The notes: generated from the letters alone by a model not told the origin. Counted from the first letter of the stretch, positions 80 to 37,044 are shown. The stretch is DNA of 41,650 nucleotides from Candidatus Buchananbacteria bacterium (GCA_903863425.1 CAIPBY010000036.1:1-41650); one strand, 5' to 3'. Made by a program: numbers and translations.

Positions 80-108
80 TTGACATAAATTAGATAATAT
101 GATATTAT
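80..108 (+). promoter_or_regulatory. sigma70-type promoter TTGACA-17-TATTAT for GC-rich cassette 1 (gene A)
   Basis: TTGACA at 80-85, 17-nt spacer, TATTAT at 103-108. Lies in AT-rich DNA about 75 nt upstream of ATG 183. Confidence 0.55.
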
Positions 109-182
109 ATTCAATTGATGAATTGTATAGTAATGGCTGAATTTACTGGGCTTTAAGCTCATAATGAAGGGAGTAATGGAAA

Positions 183-1352
183 ATGCGAGTTCTTTACATT
201 GTTGCTGTTGTTTTGTTGTTGTCGGTTAGCGCGTTTGCTGGGAACACGGTTCGTGGTCCTGGTGGACAAGCAAGTAGTCTTCCAGAGGGTGGCGGGGGTG
301 CGATTCTTTCCCTTGATGTCTGGAAAAACATCCAAGAGGGGGAGGATAGTAATTTTCGTGCAGGGTTTGAGGCGGTGTTGGGCACTGCCAAAATAACTGA
401 CGTCCTTGGAAGGTCAATGACGTCGAAAAAACTTCTTCACGTATTGCCATATCTGGATTATGTGAAGAAGTTGGACGACGACTTCGCGTTCTTCGTTAAT
501 CTCTACGCCAAAGACGCCCAAGGGTTCGCCTTCGAGAAAAACTTCGAGCAGTGGGGCTTCGATACGGAAGCACTCATCGCTCGGATAAATGTAGGCGTGG
601 GGTTGTCGTGGAAAGTGGACGACGTCTGGACGTTGGCTCTCGAGGCAGATATTGGTGTCGAGCAATTGAAGTTGGACTACGCTTTCGACATCAACAGGTT
701 CTATTTGCCGATTCTTGCCAAGAGCAGGGCGTATGGAATCGGTATTGGTGCGACCGGAGCAGTAATATGTCAGGCAACTGAGAGGTTGCGACTTGGGCTG
801 CAAGTTTCGAGTCTAATGAACATTTACTGCAAGGGTCGCACTAAGCTGTTGCGAGGAAAGGTTAGTGACACCTGGACAGCCGAGATGCCTTTCCCGATGA
901 GTGTTACCGCAGCGGGATCATATCAGCTAACCGATCGACTCGGAGTTTGTGCCGACGTGAGTTGGTACGACTTCAAGGATGACCCTTTGATACTGAAGTT
1001 CAACCATTGGGGTTTCTCAAAACCTCTGGAGTTAGGCTTCGGCGGTGTCGTTGCAGTGAGGGGCGGGTTTAACTATCAGGCGACTGATTGGTTGAAGTTC
1101 CGCGTTGGCGGTGGTTGGATGACACAGGGGGTGGATCAGAAGTATGCTGATTCCACCACTACGGATTTTCCGGGGTGGTATGGTGCTCTCGGCTTCACTG
1201 CTCAAGTTACGGGGTCAATTGACATCAGTGTGGCTTACACCCACGCTGAGGGTCATAGTCAAGAACAGTCAATCCTGCCAGGAATTTTGCCAGGGAGCAA
1301 GATTGAAGGCGGGATTGAAACTTTGATGATAGAGGGTTGCTGGAAGTTTTAA
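183..1352 (+). CDS. secreted beta-barrel outer-membrane-type protein, tentatively FadL/TodX/OmpP1-like
   Basis: 389-aa ORF with AAGGGAG (167-173) 9 nt upstream of the ATG. Signal peptide MRVLYIVAVVLLLSVSAFA. Alternating hydrophobic beta-strand pattern (IDISVAYTHA, LKFRVGGGW, VVAVRGGFNYQA), rich in Gly and aromatics. Ends in ...GCWKF, a C-terminal Phe as in OMP beta-signals. GC visibly above the backbone. Family assigned by eye only. Confidence 0.75.
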   Translation: MRVLYIVAVVLLLSVSAFAGNTVRGPGGQASSLPEGGGGAILSLDVWKNIQEGEDSNFRAGFEAVLGTAKITDVLGRSMTSKKLLHVLPYLDYVKKLDDDFAFFVNLYAKDAQGFAFEKNFEQWGFDTEALIARINVGVGLSWKVDDVWTLALEADIGVEQLKLDYAFDINRFYLPILAKSRAYGIGIGATGAVICQATERLRLGLQVSSLMNIYCKGRTKLLRGKVSDTWTAEMPFPMSVTAAGSYQLTDRLGVCADVSWYDFKDDPLILKFNHWGFSKPLELGFGGVVAVRGGFNYQATDWLKFRVGGGWMTQGVDQKYADSTTTDFPGWYGALGFTAQVTGSIDISVAYTHAEGHSQEQSILPGILPGSKIEGGIETLMIEGCWKF

Positions 1353-1385
1353 GCTACCCCTAAACAAAAAAGAAAGGAGAATAAT

Positions 1386-1419
1386 GGGTCGTAAACGGAA
1401 TTACGACCCTATTTTATTT
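1386..1419 (+). terminator. intrinsic terminator after the OMP-like gene
   Basis: 9-bp stem GGGTCGTAA (1386-1394) / TTACGACCC (1401-1409), followed by TATTTTATTT. Confidence 0.65.
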
Positions 1420-1437
1420 GAATTATATTGTAATTAA

Positions 1438-1466
1438 TTGACAAAAAACGATATTTATGATATTCT
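1438..1466 (+). promoter_or_regulatory. sigma70-type promoter TTGACA-17-TATTCT for the methyltransferase gene
   Basis: TTGACA at 1438-1443, 17-nt spacer, TATTCT at 1461-1466. Leaves a 5' UTR of roughly 130 nt before ATG 1601. Confidence 0.5.
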
Positions 1467-1600
1467 TATATAAGGTTATTTTGACCTTTTGTACATATAA
1501 AATTGTCTAAAGTTAGCTCTTGACTTGGTAGTCGGGAGTTTGGAATATTGTTTTGAAGTGGAAGCTACTGGACTGACGAAGTCCAAGACGGAGGTATATC

Positions 1601-2515
1601 ATGGCAAGTGTAGTGAGTAGTAAAGTAGAGGCATTGGGAAAACGGGTGGTCCACTTCGGCGACGAGATGGACTTCATTCCGGCACGTATCCGGCAGCTTC
1701 TGGAGACGGATTGGGTCAACGCGGATGTGCGTGATTGTTTTCTCGCCAAGTCGGAAATATGCCGGATATTGCGCAAAAATCCGGCTGATTGGGAGATGCT
1801 GGATATCGTCTACTATGGCGCGTCCCCTCGCGATGGCGTCTCGCTTAGTCGAGCTGACCATTGGCTGTCCGGATCCCTTTCAGGCCAGGCTCTTCGTGAC
1901 CGTCTCAAGGTTGTTAGTTCCTGGACGGCTCGTTACATCACGAAGGCGCTGGAAGTTGATGGACGACTCACGGTGCTCGATTTAGGAGCTGGCCCGGCGC
2001 CGTATGCTCTCGAAGCCCTGAAAGCTATTCCTGATTGTTCGGAGAGGCTGAGTTGGAGGTGTGTTGACCTCGATCAGCTATCGCTTGACGAAGGCGAAAA
2101 GCGGGCACGGGAGCACGGCTTTGAGAGAGTTCTGGAGTTTAAGAACATGGACTTCTTGTCTTCCCGTAACGCCCCGGAAGCTGACGACCCCAGAGCCGAC
2201 TTCGGTCTGCTCGTGGGCATTCTGTGTGGGATGAGTCCGGCGGAAGCGGTCTCCTGCTTGCAGAAGATTAAGATGTTCTTCCGGCCTGGGGCGGAATTGA
2301 TCGTGCCGACGTTGCTCAATCAGGCGTTCGAGGAGGATCCGCAGACGTTTCGCGTCCTCTGCAACGTCCTGGGCTGGCAACTTAAGCCCAAGTCGTTGGA
2401 CGAGGTGCGTGAAGTATTCGTAACGGCGGGGTACATCGTCAACGATATCTTCAGCGAAAGGGAAGGTGGTAACGGCCAGTACGCAATCGTGCATGCGGCC
2501 ATACCTCAACCCTGA
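1601..2515 (+). CDS. class I SAM-dependent methyltransferase, substrate unknown
   Basis: 304-aa ORF with GGAGG (1590-1594) 6 nt upstream of the ATG. Motif I VLDLGAGPAPYA, then downstream acidic-loop patterns (CVDLD, KNMDF) typical of Rossmann-fold SAM methyltransferases. GC-rich like 183-1352. Confidence 0.75.
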   Translation: MASVVSSKVEALGKRVVHFGDEMDFIPARIRQLLETDWVNADVRDCFLAKSEICRILRKNPADWEMLDIVYYGASPRDGVSLSRADHWLSGSLSGQALRDRLKVVSSWTARYITKALEVDGRLTVLDLGAGPAPYALEALKAIPDCSERLSWRCVDLDQLSLDEGEKRAREHGFERVLEFKNMDFLSSRNAPEADDPRADFGLLVGILCGMSPAEAVSCLQKIKMFFRPGAELIVPTLLNQAFEEDPQTFRVLCNVLGWQLKPKSLDEVREVFVTAGYIVNDIFSEREGGNGQYAIVHAAIPQP

Positions 2516-2539
2516 CGCGAAGCCGATACTTCGCGTGGT

Positions 2540-2582: not shown

Positions 2583-2615
2583 GTCAAAATTATGTTAAAA
2601 TATAATTATAATATT

Positions 2616-4877
2616 ATGCAGGCATCATATATATTTTTTTCCCTGTCCGCAGTTATAAGTGCTTTTATCAGCACGCTCTTTGGTTTTTTTATTTATTTCC
2701 GCAATAAACAAAGCAAGATGAACAAAACATTTGCTTTGTTTTGTTTTGGGGTTACTATCTGGTCTATTCCCTATATTTTCTGGCCTCTTGCTACCACAGC
2801 CAAGGAAACTTTGCTGGCTTTCCAGTTATTGCATATTGGAGCATGCTATGTTTCTATATTTTATTTCCATTTTACGGTGAGATGGCTGGAAATATTTGAA
2901 AAAAAGAAAAAAATAATTTATGTGGGTTATATTTTGGCTACTCTTTTTGCCCTCTCTATTCCGACGCCTTTTTTTATAAAGGATATAGTGCCAAAATTTT
3001 CTATGAGATATTGGGCAGAGCCGGGAATATTATATCATTTTTTTCTCGTAATGTTTTTTGGATATTTCCTTTATTCTTCCTATCTTTTATTCAAAGCTTA
3101 TAGGGAATCAACGGGAGTAAGGAAATTTCAAATAAAATATATTTTGGTTGGAATGGTCTTGGCTTTCCTGGGTGGTTCAACCAATTATTTTTTGTGGTAT
3201 AACATCAATATACCTCCTTATGGTAATATTTTTTCTTGTTCGTTTGTAATATTCACAGCCTATGCGATTATCAAATATCGTTTCATGGATATCCGTATTA
3301 TTGCCCGTTCATCAGCCATTTATTTTCTAGATGCCTTATATACTTATGCAGTTTTCTCTTTGTTATTAATTATATATAACTTATTTTGGGGGACGGTTTA
3401 TAATAATTATTCCTTGATAGCGGGGATTTTTGTTGCTCCATTTTTTGTCTTAGGATTATTTTGGGTGCATAACACCGCCACAAAATTTTTAAATAAATAT
3501 GTCTTCCATTCACTTTATGATTATCAGTTAGCAATTTCTAAGTTGACGCAGGAGTTAAATCGTTATACTGATTTGAATGGGATTGTAGATCTTATTGTTG
3601 ATACAATCAAGAAAACCATGGACTTGGAGAGGGCGGGAGTTTTACTGATTAACTCCGATATTTTGCCTGTAAAGTTTCAAATTGCCAAAGTGGTCGGATT
3701 TAATGAACATAACGGCATCAGTCTCGTCTCTGATAATTTATTGACCAAACATTTAGAGAGAACGCAGAAGCCTTTAGTCGGAGATGAACTATCTATGATT
3801 TCGCGTGATGCCAAGAATAAAAAAGATTCACAGAGGTTTCTGGAGTTGAGGGATTATATGAAGCACATTGAGGCTGCCCTTTGCCTACCGCTTATTATAA
3901 ATAATAAATTAATAGGCATGGTTGTATTGGGAGGCAAGAATTCTACAGAGCCTTATACTCAGCAGGATTTAGAGTTGTTGTCGATAATGTCTTTTCAGGC
4001 AGCTATTGCCATTGATAAGGCAAGACTGTATAAAAAAGTAAATGATTTTAATAAAACTCTCCAACAAAAAGTTGATGAGCAGACTAAGGATCTAAAAGAT
4101 AAGGCGGCTCATCTCGAAAAACTTCTTCAAATGCGTACGGAATTCCTCGACATTGCATCGCATCAGCTCAAGACGCCAATCTCGGTCATCCGAGGGACGA
4201 TTTCCATGTTTGAAGAGGGAAGCATGGATAAGGTGCCGGAAGCCAAGCGCAAAGAATTCTTCCATAATATCGCGGTTAAGGCAGATAAACTAAATGCAAT
4301 TATTAGTGATATTTTGCGGGCCTCGGAAATGGACACAGATGAATTTAAGCTGGATGATAAGACTTCTTCGCCTGAGCAAATCGAGGATATTGTGAAATCA
4401 GTTGACAGCCAATTGCATGCTTCGGCTAATGCCAAGAATGTGGAATTGATAATTGAGACACCGAAGACAAAATTACCCAAGGTGATGACCAGCGGAGAAT
4501 TCTTGGAGCAGGCCATTTATAATTTAGTGGATAATGGCATTAAATATACACAAAAAGGATTTGTTAAGGTTATCTTGTCGCAAGAGGGTGGCAATGTTAT
4601 TATTAAAGTCCAAGATTCTGGTATTGGTATCCCGACCAAGGAGCAGAAGAAAATATTTGATAAGTTTGCTCGTGGTACCAATGCGGTGAATATGTACACT
4701 GACGGTTCAGGATTGGGATTGTTTATTGTTAAGAAGATTATAGAAGCGCACAAGGGAGGACAAATCAGTGTACAGAGTGAAGAAGGCAAGGGCACGACGT
4801 TTATTGTCAGCTTGCCGGCGGTGGCAAATAGGATTAAAACAAAAACGGTTTTAAAATCGAGGATGAAAGGCAAATAA
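2616..4877 (+). CDS. sensor histidine kinase with polytopic membrane N-terminus, GAF-like domain, HisKA and HATPase_c
   Basis: The tracked ORF starts at 2466 inside the GC-rich terminator region. Realistic starts are ATG 2616 (MQASYIFF, used here) or ATG 2592. Multiple hydrophobic helices occupy the first ~330 aa. H-box SHQLKTPISVIRG, N-box DNGIKYT, G1 DSGIGIP, G2 GSGLGL. Confidence 0.85.
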   Translation: MQASYIFFSLSAVISAFISTLFGFFIYFRNKQSKMNKTFALFCFGVTIWSIPYIFWPLATTAKETLLAFQLLHIGACYVSIFYFHFTVRWLEIFEKKKKIIYVGYILATLFALSIPTPFFIKDIVPKFSMRYWAEPGILYHFFLVMFFGYFLYSSYLLFKAYRESTGVRKFQIKYILVGMVLAFLGGSTNYFLWYNINIPPYGNIFSCSFVIFTAYAIIKYRFMDIRIIARSSAIYFLDALYTYAVFSLLLIIYNLFWGTVYNNYSLIAGIFVAPFFVLGLFWVHNTATKFLNKYVFHSLYDYQLAISKLTQELNRYTDLNGIVDLIVDTIKKTMDLERAGVLLINSDILPVKFQIAKVVGFNEHNGISLVSDNLLTKHLERTQKPLVGDELSMISRDAKNKKDSQRFLELRDYMKHIEAALCLPLIINNKLIGMVVLGGKNSTEPYTQQDLELLSIMSFQAAIAIDKARLYKKVNDFNKTLQQKVDEQTKDLKDKAAHLEKLLQMRTEFLDIASHQLKTPISVIRGTISMFEEGSMDKVPEAKRKEFFHNIAVKADKLNAIISDILRASEMDTDEFKLDDKTSSPEQIEDIVKSVDSQLHASANAKNVELIIETPKTKLPKVMTSGEFLEQAIYNLVDNGIKYTQKGFVKVILSQEGGNVIIKVQDSGIGIPTKEQKKIFDKFARGTNAVNMYTDGSGLGLFIVKKIIEAHKGGQISVQSEEGKGTTFIVSLPAVANRIKTKTVLKSRMKGK

Positions 4878-8349: not shown

Positions 8350-8378
8350 TTGACAAATAATGGCTCACGTGATAGAAT
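8350..8378 (+). promoter_or_regulatory. sigma70-type promoter TTGACA-17-TAGAAT driving the candidate ncRNA
   Basis: TTGACA at 8350-8355, 17-nt spacer, TAGAAT at 8373-8378. No ORF follows it. Confidence 0.6.
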
Positions 8379-8594
8379 ATTATATTGCGTAAAGGGAGGA
8401 CATTACCATTCATGACTCTGCAGGCACGACAAGCATGGGATTATGACAAGGATTATTTTGGTCCCACAAGACTCGAATTTTACCTTAGAATAATTTCTTG
8501 TCTGCAGGGTTATGAGTAGTATTTAGCAATCTGCGAGCCCGTAAAATTTCAAATTTGTCACCTTCCAATTAAATTTGAGAAAACTTTTATTTCT

Positions 8595-8628
8595 TCCGCC
8601 CAAGGCGGATTAATCCGCCTTGGGCGGA
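8595..8628. repeat. perfect 34-nt palindrome TCCGCCCAAGGCGGATTAATCCGCCTTGGGCGGA inside the ncRNA candidate
   Basis: The two arms 8595-8610 and 8613-8628 are exact reverse complements. Each arm is also its own CCGCC-N3-GGCGG mini-hairpin, the same motif used as a terminator at 15988-16008 and 36300-36314. Confidence 0.85.
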
Positions 8629-8791
8629 TCGCTCGGGTGGGCTGCTACGGTCAGGCACGACAAGCATGGGAATTTCTGTCAGCTTCTTTCGGGCCTCGGC
8701 TCAAAAATTGCTCCTAGAAATTTTCTTGCCTGGCCATAATAGCCCATCCGGGTCGGCTCGCAGTTTAATGAATATTACTGTCTAGCCATCG

Positions 8792-8814
8792 CTCCGCTAA
8801 CGCGGAGTTTTTTT
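8792..8814 (+). terminator. intrinsic terminator of the ncRNA candidate
   Basis: CTCCGC (8792-8797), loop TAAC, GCGGAG (8802-8807), then T7 (8808-8814). Confidence 0.7.
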
Positions 8815-9286: not shown

Positions 9287-11194
9287 ATGCTTAATTTTTT
9301 GAAAAAATCCGAACCGTTTCATAAATGGTGGCTACTTCTGGCAGGCGTAGTCGCTTTTTTTGTTGTGGTTGCGATTGTGGCAGTTGCCTGCATATTTTTC
9401 CAGGTGTCCTACAAATATGTTTTTTATCCTGGTACGCGCCTGGGAAATATTCCTATTCAAGGTTTGACTAGAGAGCAGGCTCTCGCCAAGCTTGATCCCA
9501 TAACTGACAAGATTGAGAAGAATGGCATGAAAGTTATTTATCAGGGTGATGGCAGTCTGAATTTGGATTTTACCGGCGCCGTATCGGCTGAGGCTAATCC
9601 TGATTTGGCGCGTAGTATTCTGACTTTTGATAATCATCAGGCCGTATATGATGCTTTTGTCCTCGGCCATAGCAATAATTTTTGGCAGAATATGTCGGCC
9701 GGATGGCAAATATTTGTATCCGGTAAGAATTTTCAGCCATCATTTTATTTGGACGATAATGCATTGAAACAAATGCTTTTTGATAATTTTTCTGCTAAGG
9801 AAATTAAACAGCAGAATGCCAAACCGACTATTGTTTGGCAGGGGAATGATCATACCGTAGCCATAGGTGATGAGAAAAGCGGACAGACTTTTAATTATGA
9901 CAAGGCGATTAGTGATATCAAATTAAACTTAAGCCAATTCAAAAATGATCCTATTATTCTTGAAAGTAAAGTCGCGGAACCGGAAATTACAAGAGTAGAG
10001 ATTGAGGGGTTAGTGCCGAAAATTGACTATGTCTTAGCTTCATCTTTACCAAAGTTTGCTTACAACAGTTCGACTTGGTCCATGGATAAGAAGAAATTAT
10101 CTGCCATGCTGGAATTCAAGAAAGACAATGGAGAAGTTGTGTTGGGCATGAATCATGATTTGTTTATGGCTTGGTTTAATACTGTTATTGCTTCCAAGAT
10201 AGATGTGGAAGCCAAGAATGCGCTTATTGAAATGAAAGATGGGCAATTGCAGAAGATTTCTACTAATTCTGACGGACTCAAAGCTGACGGAGAAAAGGCT
10301 TACGTTGATGCCAATAATGGCTTATCGACAAATCAGTGGCCGGTTCAAATTGCAGTCAACAAAGTTGCGCCTGAGGTGGCCGTGGGAGATATAAATGATT
10401 TGGGGATCAAGGAAATAATCGGCACGGGTGAATCAAATTTTGCGGGGAGTCCTTCGAATCGAAGACACAATATCGCCAACGGCGCTAGTAAAGTGCATGG
10501 CATACTAATTAAGCCGGGCGAGGAATTTTCTTTGATTAAGGCTTTGGGAGATGTAGATGGCTCTACGGGATATTTGCAAGAGTTAGTAATTAAGGGAAAT
10601 AAGACCATGCCAGAATATGGCGGAGGCTTGTGTCAAATCGGTACGACTGTTTTTCGCGCTGCCATGGGTTCAGGTTTGCCTATTACCGAAAGGCGCAATC
10701 ATTCTTACAATGTGACTTATTATCTGGAAAATGGTTTGCCCGGAGTTGATGCTACTATTTATATTCCGCATCCGGATGTAAGATTTATAAATGATACTGG
10801 ACACTATGTCTTGATTCAAGCCAAGATTGTCAAAGACAAATTGACTTTTGAATTTTGGGGAACAAAGGATGGCCGTACCTCCAGTAGGACTACGCCCAAA
10901 GCTTGGGATTGGGTTTCTCCGCCTCCGATGAAGATAGTGCCAACCACTGATTTGAAGCCAGGACAGAAAAAATGCACCGAGAGCGCGCATAAAGGCGTGA
11001 AGGCGTCGTTTGATTATCTTATTACTTATGCGGATGGGACGGTGAAGAAACAGAATTTCTATTCGGTGTACAAGCCGTGGCAGGCCGTGTGCTTGGTGGG
11101 CGCGACTAGTACTCCGGTAGTATCTAGTACGACGAGTGATATTGTTGGTACGCCGGATAATCCGGTTTCTACGACCGCGACCAGCACGCCTTGA
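9287..11194 (+). CDS. VanW-domain membrane-anchored protein
   Basis: N-terminal TM helix (WWLLLAGVVAFFVVVAIVAVACIFF). VanW signature GGGLCQIGTTVFRAAMGSGLPITERRNHSY. Ser/Thr/Pro-rich C-terminal tail. Confidence 0.8.
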   Translation: MLNFLKKSEPFHKWWLLLAGVVAFFVVVAIVAVACIFFQVSYKYVFYPGTRLGNIPIQGLTREQALAKLDPITDKIEKNGMKVIYQGDGSLNLDFTGAVSAEANPDLARSILTFDNHQAVYDAFVLGHSNNFWQNMSAGWQIFVSGKNFQPSFYLDDNALKQMLFDNFSAKEIKQQNAKPTIVWQGNDHTVAIGDEKSGQTFNYDKAISDIKLNLSQFKNDPIILESKVAEPEITRVEIEGLVPKIDYVLASSLPKFAYNSSTWSMDKKKLSAMLEFKKDNGEVVLGMNHDLFMAWFNTVIASKIDVEAKNALIEMKDGQLQKISTNSDGLKADGEKAYVDANNGLSTNQWPVQIAVNKVAPEVAVGDINDLGIKEIIGTGESNFAGSPSNRRHNIANGASKVHGILIKPGEEFSLIKALGDVDGSTGYLQELVIKGNKTMPEYGGGLCQIGTTVFRAAMGSGLPITERRNHSYNVTYYLENGLPGVDATIYIPHPDVRFINDTGHYVLIQAKIVKDKLTFEFWGTKDGRTSSRTTPKAWDWVSPPPMKIVPTTDLKPGQKKCTESAHKGVKASFDYLITYADGTVKKQNFYSVYKPWQAVCLVGATSTPVVSSTTSDIVGTPDNPVSTTATSTP

Positions 11195-11219
11195 CTTTTT
11201 TGATTTAATTCTTTATAAT
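11191..11219 (+). promoter_or_regulatory. sigma70-type promoter TTGACT-17-TATAAT upstream of the tRNA/GIY-YIG unit
   Basis: TTGACT at 11191-11196 (overlaps the VanW stop codon), 17-nt spacer, TATAAT at 11214-11219. Confidence 0.5.
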
Positions 11220-11296: not shown

Positions 11297-11339
11297 GGTC
11301 TCATCGTCTAACGGTTAGGACGCCAGGTTTTTCACCCGG
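11297..11339 (+). pseudogene. truncated tRNA-Glu-like fragment (acceptor 5' strand, D arm, anticodon arm only)
   Basis: GGTCTCATCGTCTAACGGTTAGGACGCCAGGTTTTTCACCCGG aligns with positions 1-43 of the intact tRNA-Glu at 11650. The D arm is identical. The anticodon loop has a 1-nt insertion and the stem has an A-C mismatch. No T arm and no 3' acceptor strand (TGAGACC) follow. Confidence 0.55.
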
Positions 11340-11391: not shown

Positions 11392-11646
11392 ATGTGGTTC
11401 GTATATTTATTAAAAAGCAAGAAAGATGGAACATATTATATAGGTTATACGGAAAATTTAAAGCAAAGATTAATAGATCATAATCAAGGCAAGACAAAAT
11501 CAATTAAGCATAAAGTTCCTCTAATGTTGGTTTATTTTGAGGGGTATGGTAATAAAACCGTTGCTAGGACTAGAGAAATTGAATTAAAAAATAATAGTTA
11601 TAAGAAAAAAGAGATAATTGATAGGATTAAAAATATAGAGCAGTAA
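11392..11646 (+). CDS. small GIY-YIG nuclease-family protein (UPF0213/YhbQ-like)
   Basis: 84 aa. N-terminal WFVYLLKSKKDGTYYIGYTENLKQRLIDHNQG is the GIY-YIG core. Conserved Arg and Glu follow downstream (VARTREIELK). The stop lies 3 nt before tRNA-Glu. Confidence 0.75.
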   Translation: MWFVYLLKSKKDGTYYIGYTENLKQRLIDHNQGKTKSIKHKVPLMLVYFEGYGNKTVARTREIELKNNSYKKKEIIDRIKNIEQ

Positions 11647-11649
11647 TTT

Positions 11650-11721
11650 GGCCCTATCGTCTAACGGTTAGGACACCAGGTTTTCATCCTGGTAATCGGG
11701 GTCCAACTCCCCGTGGGGCTA
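11650..11721 (+). tRNA. tRNA-Glu (anticodon UUC)
   Basis: 72 nt: acceptor GGCCCTA/TGGGGCT (two G-U pairs), D arm GTCT-AACGGTTA-GGAC, anticodon arm CCAGG-TTTTCAT-CCTGG (TTC at 34-36), T arm CGGGG-TCCAACT-CCCCG. CCA is not encoded. Confidence 0.85.
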
Positions 11722-11738
11722 CAAGTTTGGATTAGAAG

Positions 11739-11757
11739 CACTCGAAAGGGTGTTTTT
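11739..11757 (+). terminator. short intrinsic terminator after tRNA-Glu
   Basis: CACTC-GAAA-GGGTG (11739-11752) followed by T5. Confidence 0.45.
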
Positions 11758-11776
11758 AATTTTGATTAAGTAATCA

Positions 11777-11811
11777 AATTAAAACGAGCCCTTGATATTA
11801 TCTCTGGGCTC
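11777..11811 (-). terminator. intrinsic terminator of the Cys-cluster gene (minus strand)
   Basis: GAGCCC (11786-11791) / GGGCTC (11806-11811) stem overlapping the stop codon. On the minus strand it is followed by GTTTTAATTT. Confidence 0.5.
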
Positions 11812-12298
11812 AAATGTCGATGGCCGGATAGGTTTTGATTTCCGTGCCTTCCCGTAGGTATACTTGGCTTGCCTCATCACTTAACTGTACCCATCTAGGC
11901 ACAAATAGGATCATCTTGCCCGAAAGGTACATATAAGCAACGAACACCCTGGAACGGAGTAGTATATCTGTTTCTCTCTTAACCCAGGCACTTGTCAAAG
12001 CGCCTTCCCTCGCTTCCCATATTTGGAGTCGAGGAGTAGCTGACCCTGTCCTGTGCCAATCAAGGATTAAACCACTCTTAGTTGGCTTAAACGACTCATC
12101 GCCGAATCCTTCCCTCCATTCGCAGTTGTATGTCCGACATACTATGTTATGGTTTGGATATAGCGTGCATCTGTGGTTGATGTTATCACAGTGTTCACAC
12201 CAGACACCAGCTGGTTTGATTAACTTTTTGCCAGCACGACTCATCTCCCAGATGTGGTGTGTCAAACAGCACAAAGTGCAATCTCCGCATTCTCTCAT
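11810..12298 (-). CDS. YkgJ-type CxxCxxCC cysteine-cluster (zinc/iron-chelating) protein
   Basis: 162 aa. N-terminal CGDCTLCC motif plus further Cys/His clusters (CEHC, C..YNC). GGAGGA lies 8 nt upstream of the ATG. GC is intermediate to high relative to the backbone. Confidence 0.65.
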   Translation of the reverse strand: MRECGDCTLCCLTHHIWEMSRAGKKLIKPAGVWCEHCDNINHRCTLYPNHNIVCRTYNCEWREGFGDESFKPTKSGLILDWHRTGSATPRLQIWEAREGALTSAWVKRETDILLRSRVFVAYMYLSGKMILFVPRWVQLSDEASQVYLREGTEIKTYPAIDI

Positions 12299-13185: not shown

Positions 13186-14097
13186 CTATCGGTGAGCAAG
13201 ACCTCCTTCATCTGTGATTTGCAACAAGACAGTACCAGGCTGGACGAGACTTATCCATATCTCATCCTCGTCCCCAATTTCATGGTTCATGTACAGGTCG
13301 TCTCTGAGCCAATGGATGACGCAAAAGGCATGCTTAGCACTGTGTTCTCCCTTTAGGATTTTGTCGCACCAGTCCTGCACGCTGTTGCTATTTGCTTCTT
13401 CCAGCCATGATTCCCATTCCTCCCGAGGTATGAGCTTATAGAGCTTCCGAGGGATGAAGTGGCAGTGATTGTCGTCATAGTTTTCAACTGCTGTTCTGAT
13501 GTCGCTCAGGACTTCCAAGTCCTTCCTGATTTTTCCTGCCCGGATGTCTTCGATTATGTCTCTGGCGGCTTCTGTCATCCAGGAAAACCACTTTTCCTTA
13601 GTGAGGAATCCGTTTTCCTCGCTAAAGATCTGTCCGAGTCCCGCCTTTGAGACCAGGATTTGCGCTTCCCGCAAAGTGCGTAGAGTTCGAGCCTTTCTGT
13701 TTGAACATAGCTTGTCTATGACAGGCATAACTGTCTGTCTCCGCTCGACTCGTCTGGCCTCTATCAAGGCGTGCAGGTCATCACACTCTTGTTGAGTCTG
13801 CTCGAATTTCGATATTCGAGCGACTTTTTCTGCATCACTTAGAGGTTTGTCGTCAGTCTCTGTTGCTTTGTCCGTCGATGCCTCTGGGGCGGTTACGGTC
13901 CTAGGCTCGGCCTTGTCCGAATAGGAGCTACCATAGCAGGAACACGATGGTGGCTTGGGTATTGGGGCAGGTAGTGGCGCACTCAACTGCCGAACTTCTG
14001 CTCTCACTTCTTGTTTGTCATGCTGAATCATACCCAACATGAAAGCCAGAATTCCAATAACAATAGCGCTGATGGTTAAGGTACAATTTGTCTTCAT
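13186..14097 (-). CDS. hypothetical membrane-anchored protein (TM anchor, Pro-rich linker, helical C-terminal region)
   Basis: Start reassigned to ATG 14097 (MKTNCTLTISAIVIGILAFMLGM), with GAGGAG exactly 7 nt upstream. The tracked start 14118 is a GTG. No family recognised. GC-rich. Confidence 0.7.
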   Translation of the reverse strand: MKTNCTLTISAIVIGILAFMLGMIQHDKQEVRAEVRQLSAPLPAPIPKPPSCSCYGSSYSDKAEPRTVTAPEASTDKATETDDKPLSDAEKVARISKFEQTQQECDDLHALIEARRVERRQTVMPVIDKLCSNRKARTLRTLREAQILVSKAGLGQIFSEENGFLTKEKWFSWMTEAARDIIEDIRAGKIRKDLEVLSDIRTAVENYDDNHCHFIPRKLYKLIPREEWESWLEEANSNSVQDWCDKILKGEHSAKHAFCVIHWLRDDLYMNHEIGDEDEIWISLVQPGTVLLQITDEGGLAHR

Positions 14098-14157
14098 GTT
14101 GCGTCTCCTCTTCTTCACTAGTTGATGGTCATTTTTCTGATTACGAATTACCCCTGT

Positions 14158-14186
14158 AGTATATTAGATATTTTGTAATTTTTCAA
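14158..14186 (-). promoter_or_regulatory. sigma70-type promoter TTGAAA-17-TATACT (minus strand) for the 13186-14097 gene
   Basis: On the minus strand: TTGAAA (14186-14181), 17-nt spacer, TATACT (14163-14158). Confidence 0.45.
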
Positions 14187-14229
14187 ATAAAAATCCGCCA
14201 ATCCATTGCTCATAACAATGAATTGGCGG
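14187..14229 (-). terminator. intrinsic terminator after the zinc-ribbon gene (minus strand)
   Basis: 14-bp stem, arms 14195-14208 and 14216-14229 (CCGCCAATCCATTG / CAATGAATTGGCGG, one mismatch). Followed on the minus strand by ATTTTTATTT. Confidence 0.65.
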
Positions 14230-14252
14230 TTGGCGCGATACGTAGGAGAAGC

Positions 14253-14456
14253 TTAATCGTAGTAGTCCTCTCCGTAATGTTCTTCACATCTGGATTCGAC
14301 TTCCTTAGCAAAGTGGTGGGTAACTTTCTCGTAACACCCATTTTCTTCGCCGACCCACTCCTCTCCGGTGACTATGAGTGGTTCGCCACAGTGAGGACAA
14401 TCCTTGGCTCGGGGGGAAACCGATCCTTCGCAATTCGGACACGCGTAGTTACTCAT
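14253..14456 (-). CDS. small zinc-ribbon protein with acidic C-terminus
   Basis: Start reassigned to ATG 14456 (MSNYACPNCEGS...), with AAGGAG 7 nt upstream. CPNC...CPHC zinc-ribbon pair. 67 aa. Confidence 0.65.
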   Translation of the reverse strand: MSNYACPNCEGSVSPRAKDCPHCGEPLIVTGEEWVGEENGCYEKVTHHFAKEVESRCEEHYGEDYYD

Positions 14457-14483
14457 GGATGTTCTCCTTTTGTGATCTCGCAT

Positions 14484-15032
14484 CTATTCACAGACATAGG
14501 CCACCAGGGTATTGGGTTGTTTCATCATGTCCTCAGGACAATCGAATCGTAGTTCCCATTTGGGGTCGTCCTGATAGCCGTTACCCCCTTTATGAAAATG
14601 GATAACCGCTATATGCCTGCTGCCATTGTACTCAAACATCGTGCCCAAGAAACAAAGATCAAATTCTTGCAGTTCTGTGGGAACTCCCTGTAGCATGAGC
14701 TTCTCGGCGTGGTGTAGGTTTGCTATTTTTCCCATTTCATCGGCTAGTAGGACGAGGATTTTGCCGACATCTTCTTCTTCGAATCCTATGCCGTCATATA
14801 CCAAATAGTGCCTGCCTTTCCACATCCGAGGGAATATCGGAGTCTCCTCTCGTTTCACTTTCTGGTCATCAAGAACGACCTTTTCGAATCGAAGCGTCTG
14901 TCCGTTTACTGGCGTTGACTCGTCGTGCACCAGAAGCTTCCAGCCCTCTTTCCTCTTGTCGTTTTGGAATATTGGCTGTTGGCCTAGAACTATCACCAAT
15001 GGCTTGGTTTCAACTGCTTGCTGAGTATCCAT
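14484..15032 (-). CDS. hypothetical protein (182 aa), no recognisable family
   Basis: Start reassigned to ATG 15032 (MDTQQAVE...), with GAGGAG 7 nt upstream. It is followed 27 nt later by the zinc-ribbon gene, so the two are probably an operon. GC-rich. Confidence 0.65.
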   Translation of the reverse strand: MDTQQAVETKPLVIVLGQQPIFQNDKRKEGWKLLVHDESTPVNGQTLRFEKVVLDDQKVKREETPIFPRMWKGRHYLVYDGIGFEEEDVGKILVLLADEMGKIANLHHAEKLMLQGVPTELQEFDLCFLGTMFEYNGSRHIAVIHFHKGGNGYQDDPKWELRFDCPEDMMKQPNTLVAYVCE

Positions 15033-15178
15033 GATATTTCTCCTCGATAACTCCAACTCACTCGTTGGAATCGTTGTAAAGGACGATAGTAAGTTCTCCT
15101 CTTGCTTACGGAAGTAATATACCATCCTCACAAATATTGTCTGGAAAAATGTAGCAATTATTTTAATTAATCAAAAAC

Positions 15179-15206
15179 TTGACTAATTTTGCAAAAGATA
15201 TATAAT
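15179..15206 (+). promoter_or_regulatory. sigma70-type promoter TTGACT-16-TATAAT abutting the trmB-like start codon (leaderless-type)
   Basis: TTGACT at 15179-15184 and TATAAT at 15201-15206. ATG 15211 lies only 4 nt after the -10 box. Confidence 0.55.
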
Positions 15207-15210
15207 ATAA

Positions 15211-15975
15211 ATGTTGTCGAAAAATATGTACGATTCTGTTCTCAAACAAGCCGGGTTAGAAGAAAAACAGGCCAAAGTGTATTTGGCTTGCTTGGAATTG
15301 GGGTCTGCCAAAGCGCCAGAAATCGCAAAAACAGCCGAAATCAAGCGTACTACCGCCTATGGAATTCTGGATGAGTTGGCTGGTTTGGGCCTGGTTAATT
15401 ATTCAGAGAAAAACAAGCAGAGACTGTATCGGGCCAATAGCCCGGAAGTTTTGGCGGATATTATGGATAGAAACCGATCGGCTCTGGCCAAGTCTTTGCC
15501 CGGTCTGGAAGATCTTTTTGCCACTCATCATTTGCGCCCCAAGATACAATTTTTTGAAGGAGTGTCTGGGGTCAAACAAATTTATGAAGATGTTTTGAAA
15601 TGCCGGACCAAGAAAATACGCCAGATTGTAAATGAAAGAGCCAATACGGATTTGGTTGGGGAGGAATTCATACTTAATTACATTCGTCGCCGGGTGGCTA
15701 GTGGCATTACCACTTATGACTTGCATCCTAAGTCGGGAGGCATTCAGACTGAGATGAGAGGCCGGGAAGATCCTAAGCTCAAGCGGTATGTGCGCTATCT
15801 GCCGCCTGATGCTTTCTATGCGGCTATGATTATGATTTATGATAATAAAGTGGCCATGGCTTCAAGCAAGAAAGAAAACTTTGGATTCATTATTGAGAGC
15901 AAAGAATTTACCAATACTCTCGCAACTTATTTTGATTTCATGTGGAAGCTGGGATCTCATGAACCGGAGAGGTAA
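15211..15975 (+). CDS. TrmB-family transcriptional regulator
   Basis: N-terminal winged-HTH LEEKQAKVYLACLELGSAKAPEIAKTAEIKRTTAYGILDELAGLGLV, typical of TrmB, plus a C-terminal effector-like domain. Confidence 0.75.
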   Translation: MLSKNMYDSVLKQAGLEEKQAKVYLACLELGSAKAPEIAKTAEIKRTTAYGILDELAGLGLVNYSEKNKQRLYRANSPEVLADIMDRNRSALAKSLPGLEDLFATHHLRPKIQFFEGVSGVKQIYEDVLKCRTKKIRQIVNERANTDLVGEEFILNYIRRRVASGITTYDLHPKSGGIQTEMRGREDPKLKRYVRYLPPDAFYAAMIMIYDNKVAMASSKKENFGFIIESKEFTNTLATYFDFMWKLGSHEPER

Positions 15976-15983
15976 ATATCAAT

Positions 15984-16013
15984 AAAAACATCCGCCTTGG
16001 GCGGATGTTTTTT
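15984..16013. terminator. bidirectional intrinsic terminator between convergent trmB-like and pck genes
   Basis: ACATCCGCC-TTG-GGCGGATGT (15988-16008), flanked by an A-run upstream and a T-run downstream. Confidence 0.75.
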
Positions 16014-16034
16014 AAATTCTATAATTTCCAATCG

Positions 16035-17891
16035 TCAAAATTCAAACGGTGAAACTATTTTTTTACCAAATTTATTTTCAGTCTCTTCTAATCTCTGTCT
16101 TTGCTGATTCAGTTGATTGAAAAATTCTTCTGGTATATCATCTTCTGCTTTGAAAACTGCCTCAACTCGATCTAATTTCCCCATGAGCTTTTCAATTCTA
16201 ATGGAAAATTGTTTCTCATATTCTTCTTTGCTGTAATCTTTGGCAAAAACTTGCTGGAATAAATTTTTCAGATCTTCATATTTTGGAATGCCTCCAACGG
16301 GGGTCTCTATCATCTCGTATTCATTATGCACCCTGCCTTCCATCCACAATACCCAGACTTTTTTGTGAAGTTTGTCATTAAGAAATTTACCTTCTTCTTT
16401 GAGAAAATAATTAGTAGAAAATATTAATGGTTTTTTTTCTACATCTTGACCGAATTTTAAATGATTTTTAATATAAGCGCTCAGTGGCACGGTTAGAAAT
16501 TCAATATTGGACATGGGATTGTGCTTCATTACGCCTTCTTTTTCGGTTGTGCCGGCAACAGTCTCTGATTCAATGATGGCGCCCATGAAAACTCCATGCG
16601 CCCAACTTAGGGTTTGTAACACTGGAACAGAAGTATTCGAATCTCTGCCACCGTAGATAAATCCGCTGACAGGAACGCCGTCAGGAGAATCCGCCTTAGC
16701 ATCAACATTTTTTAGATCATTAATTTTGATAGTATATCTGGCGTTGCTGTGAGCAGGTGATATTTCTTTTCCATTTTTGTCTTGCTTGGTTTTTTGCCAT
16801 TCTCCTGAATAATTTACTCCACTGTCAGGAAGTTCTTGCCCCATGTTTAGCCAATAGGGGACTTCGTCTTTAACTAAAACATTAGAAAAAATAAGCTCTC
16901 TGGGTGTGGTGAGCACATCATAGATAACCGGATCGTCTTCCGGATTAATGTCCTTAATTATTCCAAATATGCCTTGTTCGACATTGACCGCATAAGCCAG
17001 GCCATCTTCGCCAGGTCGGATGTAGGCGATATCGTCGCCAACAATGCTTTGTCCCGAGATCATAGCCGTGGAAGTCTTGCCACAGGCCGTGGGGAAGGCT
17101 CCAGTGAAATAAGTCACTCGATTTTTACCTTCAGGGTGGATACCCATAATAAACATGTGCTCACAGAGCCAGTCCTCATGATTAGCCTTACTAATAGCTA
17201 ATCTCAGGGCCAGTTTTTTTAAGCCCACACTATTGCCGGCGTATTGATTATTGACCGTAAATACTCTTTCGTCCTCAAGATCCATAAATATTCTTCTTTT
17301 GTCGACATCAATGCTGACGCCGTTTTCTACTTCTCCAGCAGAGTGAATAAAATGGAAAAAAGAATTCGAACCGTTTAATTTCTGGAACTGGGAATATCCT
17401 TGGCGGTACAGTAAATCTTCGCTATGAAGCACATAGGCGGAGTCAGTCAATTGCAAAGCGGGAATGGAAAATTTGGAATTAATTGGTCCGAGGCAGTAAA
17501 ATTTCACGTACATGGTTTTGCCCTTCATAATACCATCAAGAATTCTTGTTATTTCTTTGATGCCCTCATCTTTGTCCATGGTTTTTATGGCTTTGCTGAG
17601 TTTGATGCCATCTGGTATGAGTACTCGAGTATTTTCCAGGTCACGGCCCTGATCGTAATATCCATCGAAATGGATAGTGTGCCCCGCCATCTTGAGTGGT
17701 GATTCTTCGCCGTTTTTTATCGCTTGATCCCTAATCAGTTGAAGAGACTCCTCGCTGTCGTCAAGTACAATAATTTTTTCTGGTTGGCAAAGAGTGGCAT
17801 ATTTTTCAATGATAGCTTCAACATGCTCATTTTTAATGGAGTCTAATATTTTTTGGCCTTTCTCGTCCATCAAGGAGGCAGAATTTTTCAT
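16035..17891 (-). CDS. pck: phosphoenolpyruvate carboxykinase (GTP)
   Basis: 618 aa with the kinase-1a-like GAFPTACGKTS motif. Overall length and motif order match GTP-dependent PEPCK. Confidence 0.85.
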   Translation of the reverse strand: MKNSASLMDEKGQKILDSIKNEHVEAIIEKYATLCQPEKIIVLDDSEESLQLIRDQAIKNGEESPLKMAGHTIHFDGYYDQGRDLENTRVLIPDGIKLSKAIKTMDKDEGIKEITRILDGIMKGKTMYVKFYCLGPINSKFSIPALQLTDSAYVLHSEDLLYRQGYSQFQKLNGSNSFFHFIHSAGEVENGVSIDVDKRRIFMDLEDERVFTVNNQYAGNSVGLKKLALRLAISKANHEDWLCEHMFIMGIHPEGKNRVTYFTGAFPTACGKTSTAMISGQSIVGDDIAYIRPGEDGLAYAVNVEQGIFGIIKDINPEDDPVIYDVLTTPRELIFSNVLVKDEVPYWLNMGQELPDSGVNYSGEWQKTKQDKNGKEISPAHSNARYTIKINDLKNVDAKADSPDGVPVSGFIYGGRDSNTSVPVLQTLSWAHGVFMGAIIESETVAGTTEKEGVMKHNPMSNIEFLTVPLSAYIKNHLKFGQDVEKKPLIFSTNYFLKEEGKFLNDKLHKKVWVLWMEGRVHNEYEMIETPVGGIPKYEDLKNLFQQVFAKDYSKEEYEKQFSIRIEKLMGKLDRVEAVFKAEDDIPEEFFNQLNQQRQRLEETENKFGKKIVSPFEF

Positions 17892-34457: not shown

Positions 34458-34463
34458 ATGGTA

Positions 34464-35840: not shown

Positions 35841-35849
35841 ATAGGAAAA

Positions 35850-35947
35850 TTTACAATTATCAATTTACAATTATCAAACAATTTTCAATTTTTAATTTCT
35901 AAATTTAGATATTATCTGAAAATTGATAATTGGAAATTGAAAATTAT
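35850..35947. repeat. AT-rich tandem and inverted repeats in the RNHCP-gene 5' leader
   Basis: Perfect tandem TTTACAATTATCAA x2 (35850-35863, 35864-35877). CAATTATCAA is complementary to TTGATAATTG (35923-35932). CAATTTTCAATTT (35879-35891) is complementary to AAATTGAAAATT (35934-35945). Confidence 0.65.
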
Positions 35948-35954
35948 ATGGTTT

Positions 35955-36269
35955 ATGTCTTTTATTAGGGTTAAAGAAAATTTTATTTGTGAGCATTGCG
36001 GGAAAGAGATTCAGGGAAATGGTTATACCAACCATTGCCCGGTTTGTTTGTGGTCCAAACATGTGGATATTGAGCCAGGAGATAGGAAGGACGAATGTGG
36101 GGGTATGATGGAGCCGGTGGATATTTATTTCCGCAAGCAGGATTGGATTATCACGCATAGGTGTCAGACTTGCGGACACAAGAGAAATAATAGAGTTGGA
36201 GAAAATGATAACTTCGATGAAGTGATAAGATTGGAGAAAGAGATAAATGAGAAGAAGATAAAAAAGTAA
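35955..36269 (+). CDS. RNHCP-domain zinc-binding protein
   Basis: CEHCG ... YTNHCPVCLWSKHVD ... HRCQTCGH pattern of the RNHCP domain. The first ATG is 35955 (the tracked start 35937 is TTG). Confidence 0.7.
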   Translation: MSFIRVKENFICEHCGKEIQGNGYTNHCPVCLWSKHVDIEPGDRKDECGGMMEPVDIYFRKQDWIITHRCQTCGHKRNNRVGENDNFDEVIRLEKEINEKKIKK

Positions 36270-36298
36270 TTTTATTTTAATTTATTGTTATTGAAATA

Positions 36299-36320
36299 GT
36301 CCGCCTTGGGCGGATTTTTT
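36299..36320 (+). terminator. intrinsic terminator (CCGCC-TTG-GGCGG type)
   Basis: TCCGCC-TTG-GGCGGA (36300-36314) followed by T6. Confidence 0.75.
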
Positions 36321-36334
36321 GGTGGAAAAATTTA

Positions 36335-36364
36335 TTGACATGGTTACTTAATTTTACGTATAAT
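36335..36364 (+). promoter_or_regulatory. sigma70-type promoter TTGACA-18-TATAAT for GC-rich cassette 4
   Basis: TTGACA at 36335-36340, 18-nt spacer, TATAAT at 36359-36364. Confidence 0.55.
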
Positions 36365-36429
36365 ATAAGTGACTGGACGGCTTACCCAAATTCGGGAAAA
36401 GCAAAGATTCCAGCAAGGAGGTTACCTGT

Positions 36430-36873
36430 ATGCGTTGGATTTCGATGTTGGTAGTGGTATGTGCTGTAGTCGCGATGGCCTCGATGGCAGGCTTGACCGG
36501 CGTGGTTCAGGATGGTTCGGTCGCAGCGCTCGCGGTCGGTCAAACTTCGGCTCCCGCCGTTGTTGGGTTCGAAGGGACGATGCCGACGTGTGCCGCCGCG
36601 AATGTCGCTGGCTCGGTTTTTGCCTCTGCGACGCCGGCCCAAGAACGGGTTGGTTACGAAATGGCCAAAGTGCAAGAGATGCAGGCCAGCAAAGCAGCGA
36701 ATGACAGCGAAGTGGCGTTTGCGGCGAAGACAAGTGCTGAAAAGATCGACATGGCGATGACGGACGAACACGCGCGCGCCAGCGGTGTTTCGGTGGCCTT
36801 CATCAATGATCCCTGCGTCTCCAAGCCGATTGCCGATGTCAAGCCGATTACTGCCGAAGTCGCGTACCTCTAA
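36430..36873 (+). CDS. small secreted Ala-rich protein, function unknown
   Basis: 147 aa with AAGGAGG (36415-36421) 8 nt upstream of the ATG. Signal peptide MRWISMLVVVCAVVAMASMA. It is the only one of several overlapping GC-rich ORFs with both an SD and a signal peptide. Confidence 0.65.
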   Translation: MRWISMLVVVCAVVAMASMAGLTGVVQDGSVAALAVGQTSAPAVVGFEGTMPTCAAANVAGSVFASATPAQERVGYEMAKVQEMQASKAANDSEVAFAAKTSAEKIDMAMTDEHARASGVSVAFINDPCVSKPIADVKPITAEVAYL

Positions 36874-36998
36874 ACCGTACAGGTCAAGGTTGCGCGAGTA
36901 GTACGTTCCATGTCCGCAGATCGTGCGGACAATATCCCAAGTTAAGGGGCACTTCTGGGGAAGAAATATATAAACAAACAGGAGGACCCTGCAGTTCC

Positions 36999-37044
36999 GA
37001 GCGAGAGCGTTAGCATCAGCTGACCCCTCTCGCTCATTTTATTT
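36999..37044 (+). terminator. intrinsic terminator closing cassette 4
   Basis: GAGCGAGAG (36999-37007) / CTCTCGCTC (37027-37035) 9-bp stem, followed by ATTTTATTT. Confidence 0.6.

Follow-up and report, generated by a model that had tools for sequence, protein, structure and literature searches.

Shine-Dalgarno-led, GC-richer gene cassettes in an AT-rich contig of the candidate phyla radiation and signs of a heritable gene class

Introduction

Genes that differ from the chromosome around them have been discussed both as phage morons, a term reportedly defined by Juhala and Hendrix in 2000, and as horizontally acquired genes, for which Lawrence and Ochman are said to have put forward the amelioration model. 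Genomes poor in Shine-Dalgarno (SD) sites are known as well. In Bacteroidia such as Flavobacterium johnsoniae (PMC6847099, PMC7797042, PMC9976891), most genes reportedly lack an SD and a few have strong ones; leaders are A-rich and weakly structured, with A favored at -3 and -6 (PMC6847099). In Parcubacteria, Tsurumaki et al. (PMC9297842) detected no anti-SD motif in about half of the 16S genes. Here we analyze 41,650 nucleotides (nt) from Candidatus Buchananbacteria bacterium (GCA_903863425.1 CAIPBY010000036.1:1-41650), called the window below, in which an earlier note had described four GC-rich cassettes with strong SDs in an AT-rich backbone with essentially none, read as repeated acquisitions of foreign genes. 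The window is like the Bacteroidia in all of the traits just named, and its backbone lineage lies within or near the SD-poor Parcubacteria. With modest confidence we favor the reading that a clade of the candidate phyla radiation (CPR) has two heritable classes of genes, set apart by how translation starts and by codon usage, to which some species-specific units of like build were added.

Results

SD-led and SD-less genes in the window

The window was scored gene by gene as 40 genes, 7 from cassettes (C1a and C1b, C2, C3a to C3c, and C4) and 33 from the backbone. Overall GC is 39.7% (0.397), and windowed GC peaks at 250-1250 (0.50-0.52), 1500-2500 (0.53-0.57), 11750-12250 (0.45), 13250-15000 (0.46-0.52), and 36250-37000 (0.50-0.57). 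GC at third codon positions (GC3) was 0.48-0.65 in the seven cassette genes versus a mean of 0.38 in the 33 backbone genes (Mann-Whitney p=2e-7). Both measures confirmed that GC-richer cassettes lie in an AT-rich backbone, and the "eight" open reading frames (ORFs) of the earlier note proved to be the seven that it listed. SD strength was taken as the duplex energy of the leader from -20 to -4 with CACCUCCUUU, which is the canonical 16S tail and may not be the host's. By this measure all seven cassette genes carried a canonical SD 6-9 nt upstream of the ATG, at -8.2 to -12.4 kcal/mol, whereas the 33 backbone genes averaged 0.0 and none fell below -6.3 kcal/mol (Mann-Whitney p=4e-5); across the 40 genes the two sets did not overlap and separation was perfect. 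As a background rate, 3% of the ATGs in the window reach -8 kcal/mol. To guard against circularity in the choice of starts, alternative in-frame starts of backbone genes were also scored, and 1 of 120 had an SD (<= -8); it is codon 26 of tsaD, a TTG inside the gene. The earlier statements that every cassette ATG has an SD and that backbone starts have none (0 of 33) thus both held. Moreover, stored gene calls of independent assemblies share the cassette starts that the note had used, giving products of 389, 304, 162, 303, 67, 182, and 147 amino acids (aa).

Codon fractions also differed between cassette and backbone genes, at AAC (0.65 versus 0.15), GAC (0.56 versus 0.24), TTC (0.65 versus 0.31), CAC (0.63 versus 0.26), AAG (0.60 versus 0.36), and TTA (0.04 versus 0.26). 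The reported preference for C- and G-ending codons is real, but a uniform rise in GC3 did not stand: the rise was mostly in 2-fold codons, and C was not raised in the Ala, Pro, Thr, and Gly families. The shift was strongest at Phe and Ile and at the NAC/NAT codons of Asn, Asp, His, and Tyr, the families with queuosine tRNAs. Two trivial sources were rejected. Strand bias does not give the C-ending preference, as minus-strand backbone genes reach 0.33-0.44 and cassettes are higher on both strands, and structured RNA does not give the GC-richness, as tRNA-Glu was the only Rfam match.

The four promoter-like boxes quoted in the earlier note were all present. Upstream of C1a, a sigma70-like, TG-extended TTGACA-17-TATTAT lies at 80-108 (plus strand; 11 of 12 consensus matches), and C1b is preceded by TTGACA-17-TATTCT at 1438-1466 (plus). 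C3a has TTGAAA-17-TATACT at 14186-14158 (minus) and C4 a perfect TTGACA-18-TATAAT at 36335-36364 (plus; 12 of 12). Consensus matches were 10-12 of 12 for these four and 9 of 12 for a candidate C2 promoter at 12355-12327 (minus). Sigma70-like promoters with 11 of 12 matches also lie upstream of the backbone genes rpsA, an aminotransferase gene at 19193, and trmB, so the note's term "recipient-type promoters" is reasonable. Consistent with its claim that cassettes have their own terminators, hairpins with T-runs were found 3' of C1a (1386-1409, plus), C1b (2540-2582, plus; hairpin and T8, directly before the next gene), C3b (a 16-bp hairpin that ends the C3c-C3b operon, 14195-14229, minus), and C4 (36999-37045, plus; hairpin GAGCGAGAG...CTCTCGCTC and ATTTTATTT, where the GC-rich block ends). 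The cassettes fit a moron-type build, with their own promoter, ORF or ORFs, their own terminator, and a composition unlike that of their neighbors. We conclude that the data support the cassettes as self-contained transcription units, distinct in composition and translation.

Start-site context differed as well. Folding energy from -30 to +30 was -8.1 kcal/mol for cassette genes versus -4.2 kcal/mol for backbone genes (p=0.004). Among the 33 backbone starts, A stood at 0.55-0.64 from -7 to -3 and 73% had T at -1, and their leaders were G-depleted (G <=0.18 throughout -20 to -1). At the trmB-family regulator (15179-15211), a TTGACT-16-TATAAT promoter ends only 5 nt before the ATG, so this mRNA is probably leaderless.

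Cassette 1 in related loci

Cassette 1 lies on the plus strand and consists of C1a (183-1352; 389 aa; SD AGGGAG at 9 nt; GC 0.50, GC3 0.55), which encodes a predicted FadL/TodX-type beta-barrel, and C1b (1601-2515; SD GGAGG at 6 nt; GC 0.56, GC3 0.63), which encodes a class I S-adenosylmethionine (SAM) methyltransferase. Past the C1b terminator follows a seven-transmembrane (7TM)-GAF histidine kinase gene without an SD (2592-4877). Among 5.8 billion proteins the FadL-like protein had only 2 non-self homologs, both in AT-rich context of the same kind; the methyltransferase had 25 homologs in the protein database, at 38-69% identity. Related loci are designated by L numbers. The order FadL-like gene, methyltransferase, 7TM/GAF kinase was found at L103/L086 (methyltransferase identity 69%; 69-72% aa identity over the block) and L104/L105 (54%), and the order FadL-like gene, methyltransferase, kinase at L193 (51%), there among rpoA, rplQ, dnaK, and similar genes. 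At L108/L109 (50%) the methyltransferase and kinase genes are adjacent and a FadL-like gene lies about 4 kb off, and L190 (38%) has the methyltransferase-kinase pair only.

SDs and GC surplus accompany the cassette 1 genes in these relatives. In L103/L086, L104, L193, and L108, the ATGs of the FadL-like and methyltransferase genes are preceded at 6-9 nt by a purine-rich motif of the GGAG type. SD energies of methyltransferase orthologs were -7.5 to -8.9 at four loci; those of FadL orthologs were -9.3 at L104 and, weaker, -6.2 at L108 and -5.3 at L193, and for FadL in L086/L103 visual inspection at the ATG gave GGGAG at 7 nt. The adjacent kinase lacks an SD in every relative. GC of the FadL-like gene and methyltransferase versus the adjacent kinase was 0.46/0.52 versus 0.35, 0.48/0.49 versus 0.33, 0.53/0.53 versus 0.40, and 0.46/0.41 versus 0.34, a surplus of +0.07 to +0.22 at four loci.

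To place cassette 1 in time, we compared the window with L086. On conserved residues, identity at 4-fold sites was 0.40 for FadL, 0.32 for the methyltransferase, and 0.45 for the kinase, and composition alone predicts 0.26-0.30; silent sites are therefore close to saturation. By these comparisons, cassette 1 is no younger than the kinase and at least as diverged as this neighbor. Conservation of the C1b promoter region well exceeds that of silent sites, and in L086 the stems of both cassette 1 terminators carry compensatory substitutions. The cassette 1 units thus appear functional and vertically inherited. A rough two-state calculation, not a fitted model, estimated that neutral decay would have erased about two-thirds of the initial GC contrast since the window/L086 split. 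In both lineages the methyltransferase nevertheless exceeds the backbone by about 0.3 at 4-fold sites, and a surplus that outlasted the estimated decay suggests that some force maintains the contrast. On this rough modeling, the SDs and the GC and codon surplus of cassette 1 would be maintained rather than the fading scar of an import.

In all relatives that we recovered, including that at 38% identity, the methyltransferase gene lies directly upstream of the HisKA_7TM kinase gene, usually with the FadL-type barrel gene beside the pair. An outer-membrane-type channel is odd for this lineage, as the CPR host lineage is commonly considered to have no outer membrane. C1a matched Pfam PF03349 at 36.1 bits (cutoff 29.7), orthologs are annotated alike, and the protein starts with a signal peptide and terminates in ...WKF. 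Its predicted structure, of low confidence (predicted local distance difference test [pLDDT], 54; predicted template modeling score, 0.56), superposes on FadL/TodX (expectation value [E], 1e-17; template modeling score, 0.65-0.69); the model spans no hatch region (residues 1-43) and its barrel is of low confidence. A sequence search of the PDB with C1a gave only noise. C1b was identified by Pfam, its AF2 model has a pLDDT of 95.6, and with Foldseek matches to DnrK, BchU, TleD, and RebM the predicted fold resembles small-molecule O-/C-methyltransferases. The models suggest that C1a, C1b, and the kinase may take up, modify, and sense a hydrophobic compound.

The longest ORF of the kinase begins at a GTG within the methyltransferase gene (2466-2592); a start near 2592, past the C1b terminator, is backed by relatives and other gene calls. 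At the other edge of the cassette, many independent assemblies break off where the window begins, no more than about 200 nt upstream of the FadL-like gene, L089 runs on into an EsV_1_7_cys gene, and the interval between an epimerase gene and the FadL-like gene is filled by different genes in relatives. The site upstream of the FadL-like gene is probably strain-variable.

The pattern across the clade

The nearest relatives of the window's M24 peptidase (<=57% identity) and PilB-type ATPase (about 60%) belong to CPR metagenome-assembled genomes (MAGs) labeled Patescibacteria, Parcubacteria, Moranbacteria, Liptonbacteria, and the like. In one run with a crude gene caller, the SD fraction was 0-0.2 at those CPR loci versus 0.65 at a Bacillus control locus. 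Together with the reported loss of anti-SDs in Parcubacteria, these low fractions indicate that the SD-poor backbone is a lineage trait. M24-anchored synteny scans of GTDB and JGI found only relatives at <=57% identity, with little shared context.

To look beyond cassette 1, database gene calls from the window, L103, L104, L108/L109, and L087 were pooled (six loci, 95 genes). SD energy was bimodal, with 21 genes at <= -8, 60 above -2, and few between. GC3 relative to the locus median was +0.10 for SD-led genes and -0.02 for the others (p=4e-8); the association held in the relatives only (p=2e-4) and after removal of the FadL-like and methyltransferase orthologs (p=0.002). SD-led genes were 23 of the 95, none of them ribosomal, and 7 of 40 in the window. 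The closest M24 relative, L058, has three minus-strand SD-led clusters encoding small, unrelated membrane proteins, with GC3 of 0.38-0.45 versus 0.17-0.28 in its backbone.

The codon shift at 4-fold C was weak or absent in the cassette genes and in their orthologs in L103, L104, L087, and L193. At L193, cassette genes equal the backbone at 4-fold sites and yet differ at 2-fold sites.

Cassettes 2 to 4

Cassette 2 encodes a CxxCxxCC-like Cys-rich protein of 162 aa (C2; 11810-12298, minus; SD GGAGGA at 8 nt; GC3 0.48), and its 3' end lies 88 nt from tRNA-Glu(UUC) (11650-11722, plus). The C2 family is large, with 1871 representative homologs (best, 44% identity) and relatives on 235 IMG/VR contigs; PHROGs gave only weak matches of unknown function, to C2 and C3b. 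At L104 the tRNA after VanW is present and C2 is absent behind it. On the other side of the tRNA-Glu, a 29-nt copy of its 5' part (11303-11331, 97% identical to 11656-11684) is followed by a GIY-YIG endonuclease ORF (11392-11646; GC 0.26) that abuts the intact tRNA, and a TTGACT-17-TATAAT promoter lies nearby at 11191-11219. The ORF and tRNA fragment look like a small mobile insertion that may have duplicated or restored the tRNA 5' half; the repeat brackets the GIY-YIG ORF, not any cassette.

Cassette 3 lies on the minus strand and encodes C3a, an N-terminally anchored protein of 303 aa (13186-14097; SD GAGGAG), C3b, a zinc-ribbon protein of 67 aa (14253-14456; SD AAGGAG), and C3c, of 182 aa (14484-15032; SD GAGGAG). 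The identical 7-nt spacing that the earlier note saw in these three genes is exact. Cassette 4 encodes an orphan Ala/Val-rich secreted protein of 147 aa (C4; 36430-36873, plus; SD AAGGAGG at 7 nt; GC 0.59, GC3 0.65). Apart from weak zinc-ribbon matches for C3b, Pfam, PHROGs, PADLOC, and NCBIfam gave no family match for C3a-c or C4. C4 had no homolog in the large protein database or the IMG/VR scan, C3a none in a pattern scan of JGI metagenome contigs, and C3c none in the IMG/VR scan. L058 has an SD-led, GC-richer pair (14663-16079, minus) of 181 and 303 aa, like C3c and C3a in length and order; it was rejected as a relative, as pairwise similarity was not significant (E, 0.03-0.06). Only C1a, C3a, and C4 have a signal peptide or transmembrane anchor (3 of 7), so the description of the products as mostly secreted or membrane proteins was not borne out.

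A 22-nt repeat, 82% identical and lying over -10 regions, flanks C4 (36347-36368 and 37096-37117); it could be the trace of an insertion by promoter duplication or could be chance. GGAGGTnAC occurs in the C4 leader (36417) and in the leader of an aminotransferase gene (37151), where at 19 nt from the ATG it is too far for an SD.

Elsewhere in the window, upstream of hsp20 (8350-8810), about 420 nt without a convincing ORF lie between a strong TTGACA-17-TAGAAT promoter with TG (8350-8378) and a terminator (8791-8808). They contain a perfect palindrome (8598-8629) and a 20-mer, caggcacgacaagcatggga, repeated at 8421 and 8654, and had no Rfam match even at E<=1. The stretch may be a noncoding RNA of a new type or a long regulatory leader.

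Origin of the cassettes

Taken to its full extent, the earlier note's reading would make all four cassettes separate, fairly recent imports from a GC-richer, SD-using host or partner, set behind recipient-type promoters and not yet ameliorated. We consider this unlikely, and the evidence divides between the cassettes. Their atypical GC and codon usage is what the reading predicts, and their values of GC at the three codon positions (GC1/GC2/GC3) match genomes of about 46-58% GC. Import is also suggested by the orphan status of C4, the lack of relatives of C3a (JGI) and C3c (IMG/VR), the position of C2 beside a tRNA behind which it is missing in L104, the frequency of the C2 family in viral contigs, the promoter-like repeat around C4, and the FadL barrel, a diderm invention. 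Searches for vehicles and sources were negative. Pfam, PHROGs, and PADLOC scans of the window found no integrase or transposase, and no att-like repeats were found around the cassettes, the 22-nt repeat at C4 being weak. No phage structural genes were found in the window, where the neighbors are housekeeping genes (ftsH, rpsA, tsaD, and pckG); a phage or defense origin was rejected, as the PADLOC match was a generic methyltransferase domain and NCBIfam gave nothing. IMG/VR scans yielded no relatives of FadL, the methyltransferase, C3c, or C4, and searches of the protein database, JGI, and IMG/VR gave no donor lineage with close homologs for any cassette; FadL-like homologs turned up solely within the same AT-rich lineage. 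Against recent import, moreover, stands a GC shift centered on 2-fold codons rather than uniform.

Cassette 1 bears on the question most directly. A test for same-locus absence, as for a recent island, found it present in L103/L086, L104, and L193 and partly in L108. In at least four relatives it accompanies the same kinase and keeps its SDs and contrast, with silent sites near saturation, and is as diverged as the backbone or more; the earlier note had itself named such orthologs as a sign of ancient rather than acquired genes. Neither recent import nor a GC-rich donor stood for cassette 1, and acquisition of cassettes 2-4 is plausible but unproven. Cassette 1 was probably foreign once, since its barrel is of diderm type. 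Cassettes 2-4 are probably species-specific accessory units of the same build, inserted later from sources that were not located.

Expression level, conditional initiation, and assembly

A second alternative is that the cassettes are very highly expressed native genes, with strong promoters, strong SDs, and C-ending 2-fold codons that arose by selection on translation, as is the case for major envelope proteins of other bacteria. The near-consensus promoters would fit, as would the preference for NNC over NNT without a rise of C in 4-fold (SSN) families, a pattern known from highly expressed genes that recurs as the same 2-fold shift in orthologs. Genes expected to be highly expressed behave differently. 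In the window rpsA and ftsH show neither SD nor codon shift, and in relatives L17, L13, S9, DnaK, GrpE, RpoA, and trigger factor likewise lack both. L193 gives the comparison within one locus: its ribosomal proteins, DnaK, GrpE, and RpoA have neither SD nor 2-fold-codon shift, and its FadL-like and methyltransferase genes have the shift, with an SD that is moderate on the methyltransferase and weaker on the FadL-like gene, which argues against simple high-expression selection. G-ending codons (NCG and AAG) are also up, unusual for translational selection, and strong codon selection is not expected in tiny-genome CPR bacteria. We think this alternative improbable.

It is equally doubtful that translation of the SD-led genes is switched separately as a regulon, in which ribosomes with an occluded or heterogeneous anti-SD, as in Bacteroidia, normally ignore SDs and the set is read upon exposure of the anti-SD. 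Bimodal SD strength with few intermediates, conservation of the initiation mode per gene among orthologs, and backbone leaders A-rich near -3 and -6, as in F. johnsoniae (PMC6847099), would all be expected, and SD use controlled by bS21 has precedent (PMC9976891, PMC7797042). Bacteroidia-type sequestration of the anti-SD would involve bS21, bS18, and bS6; the window and the clade loci retrieved contain neither their genes nor 16S rRNA. In Bacteroidia, though, SD-led genes amount to little more than rpsU and prfB rather than about 20% of genes, and a plain mixed-usage genome accounts for the same data. We give similarly little credence to a more specific form, in which anti-SD exposure or ribosome heterogeneity would control envelope and host-interaction genes, including the FadL channel, with NAC codon usage as part of the control.

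Exact-protein look-ups found C4 in 18, C1b in 22, and C2 in 16 contigs, with the same neighbors on both sides. These contigs come from the BUCK21-1 series, ERZ14265xx-ERZ14268xx, ERZ273135xx, and Logan ERR4194688 and represent three assembler styles (scaffolds, k141 contigs, and Logan); five C4-bearing contigs match the window at 99.86-100% identity, and a single 16.6-kb contig covers cassettes 1 to 3. That mis-assembly fits poorly, as the earlier note had judged, is upheld by junctions that recur in 16-22 independent contigs. A chimera of GC-rich fragments of another organism joined into an AT-rich contig, for which the compositional contrast itself and the breaks of many assemblies near window position 1 speak, is hardly credible, as each cassette with both flanks recurs across samples at that identity and diverged relatives share the arrangement.

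Discussion

We favor two heritable gene classes in this CPR clade, joined by a few later additions of the same build. The host chromosome would be that of a Parcubacteria-like member of the Patescibacteria. Its majority class would be AT-rich genes that start without an SD from G-depleted, weakly structured leaders. The minority class would consist of stand-alone units, making up 7 of 40 genes in the window and about a quarter at the six related loci, each placing a GC-richer coding sequence between a sigma70-like promoter and a hairpin terminator, with a leader of 20-130 nt and a canonical SD at 6-9 nt. Cassette 1 would be an old clade-specific module, a FadL-type channel and a methyltransferase kept beside a 7TM-GAF sensor kinase. 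A likely link between the two traits is that AU-rich leaders may recruit ribosomes without an SD, whereas GC-richer mRNAs would fold at the start and need SD pairing. That link would not by itself account for the lasting GC-richness of the coding regions.

Several observations weigh against this reading. At L190 the methyltransferase lacks an SD, and its GC exceeds that of the kinase only slightly (0.39 versus 0.33). GC3 of the methyltransferase differs widely by lineage (0.63, 0.56, 0.49, and 0.37), and the L108 gene is nearly ameliorated. Exceptions run both ways, as epim2 of L103 has GC of 0.52 without an SD and the EPSP synthase gene of L108 has an SD with low GC3. The case for maintenance uses the rough two-state estimate, and a functional anti-SD in the organism is suggested solely by SD conservation. 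Relatives informed cassette 1 and the tRNA/C2 site (L104); the C3 and C4 loci lie outside the relatives retrieved.

SD-poor genomes and compositionally odd islands are each already known. In the window and its relatives the SD and GC traits go together gene by gene, and the coupling appears inherited across a CPR clade despite the turnover of silent sites. If confirmed genome-wide, this would offer a natural setting in which to study why certain mRNAs depend on an SD and the remainder do not, and it would advise caution in calling GC-rich, SD-bearing genes in CPR MAGs contamination or recent transfer. The module of FadL-like channel, methyltransferase, and kinase would then be a candidate for uptake of lipids or hydrophobic compounds in bacteria without their own lipid synthesis.

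The likeness to Bacteroidia has limits: about one-fifth of genes are SD-led here, none of them ribosomal and with GC3 raised by +0.1 to +0.3, T is strongly favored at -1, and the SD-led genes (23 of 95 in the clade) are not restricted to the rpsU/prfB type. Phage morons and small islets are similar in build, with one ORF or a short operon, a sigma70 promoter and factor-independent terminator of their own, and a distinct composition, and they lie between genes that in relatives adjoin each other or enclose something else; the C2 family occurs in many viral contigs. Unlike morons, the cassettes lie in a cellular chromosome rather than a prophage, and cassette 1 is an ancient, fixed module with synteny throughout the clade. 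With ameliorating acquired genes the cassettes share atypical GC and codons, orphan or narrowly distributed products, and a tRNA beside one of them; they differ in a contrast that persists in orthologs past near-saturation and in the absence of mobility genes or a donor from our searches. Finally, C1a is like the FadL/TodX channels (PF03349; PDB 1T16 and 3BS0) in its Pfam match, predicted long-stranded barrel, signal peptide, and C-terminal aromatic residue, and unlike them in its identity of only 12-15% and in being fixed beside a methyltransferase and a 7TM sensor kinase.

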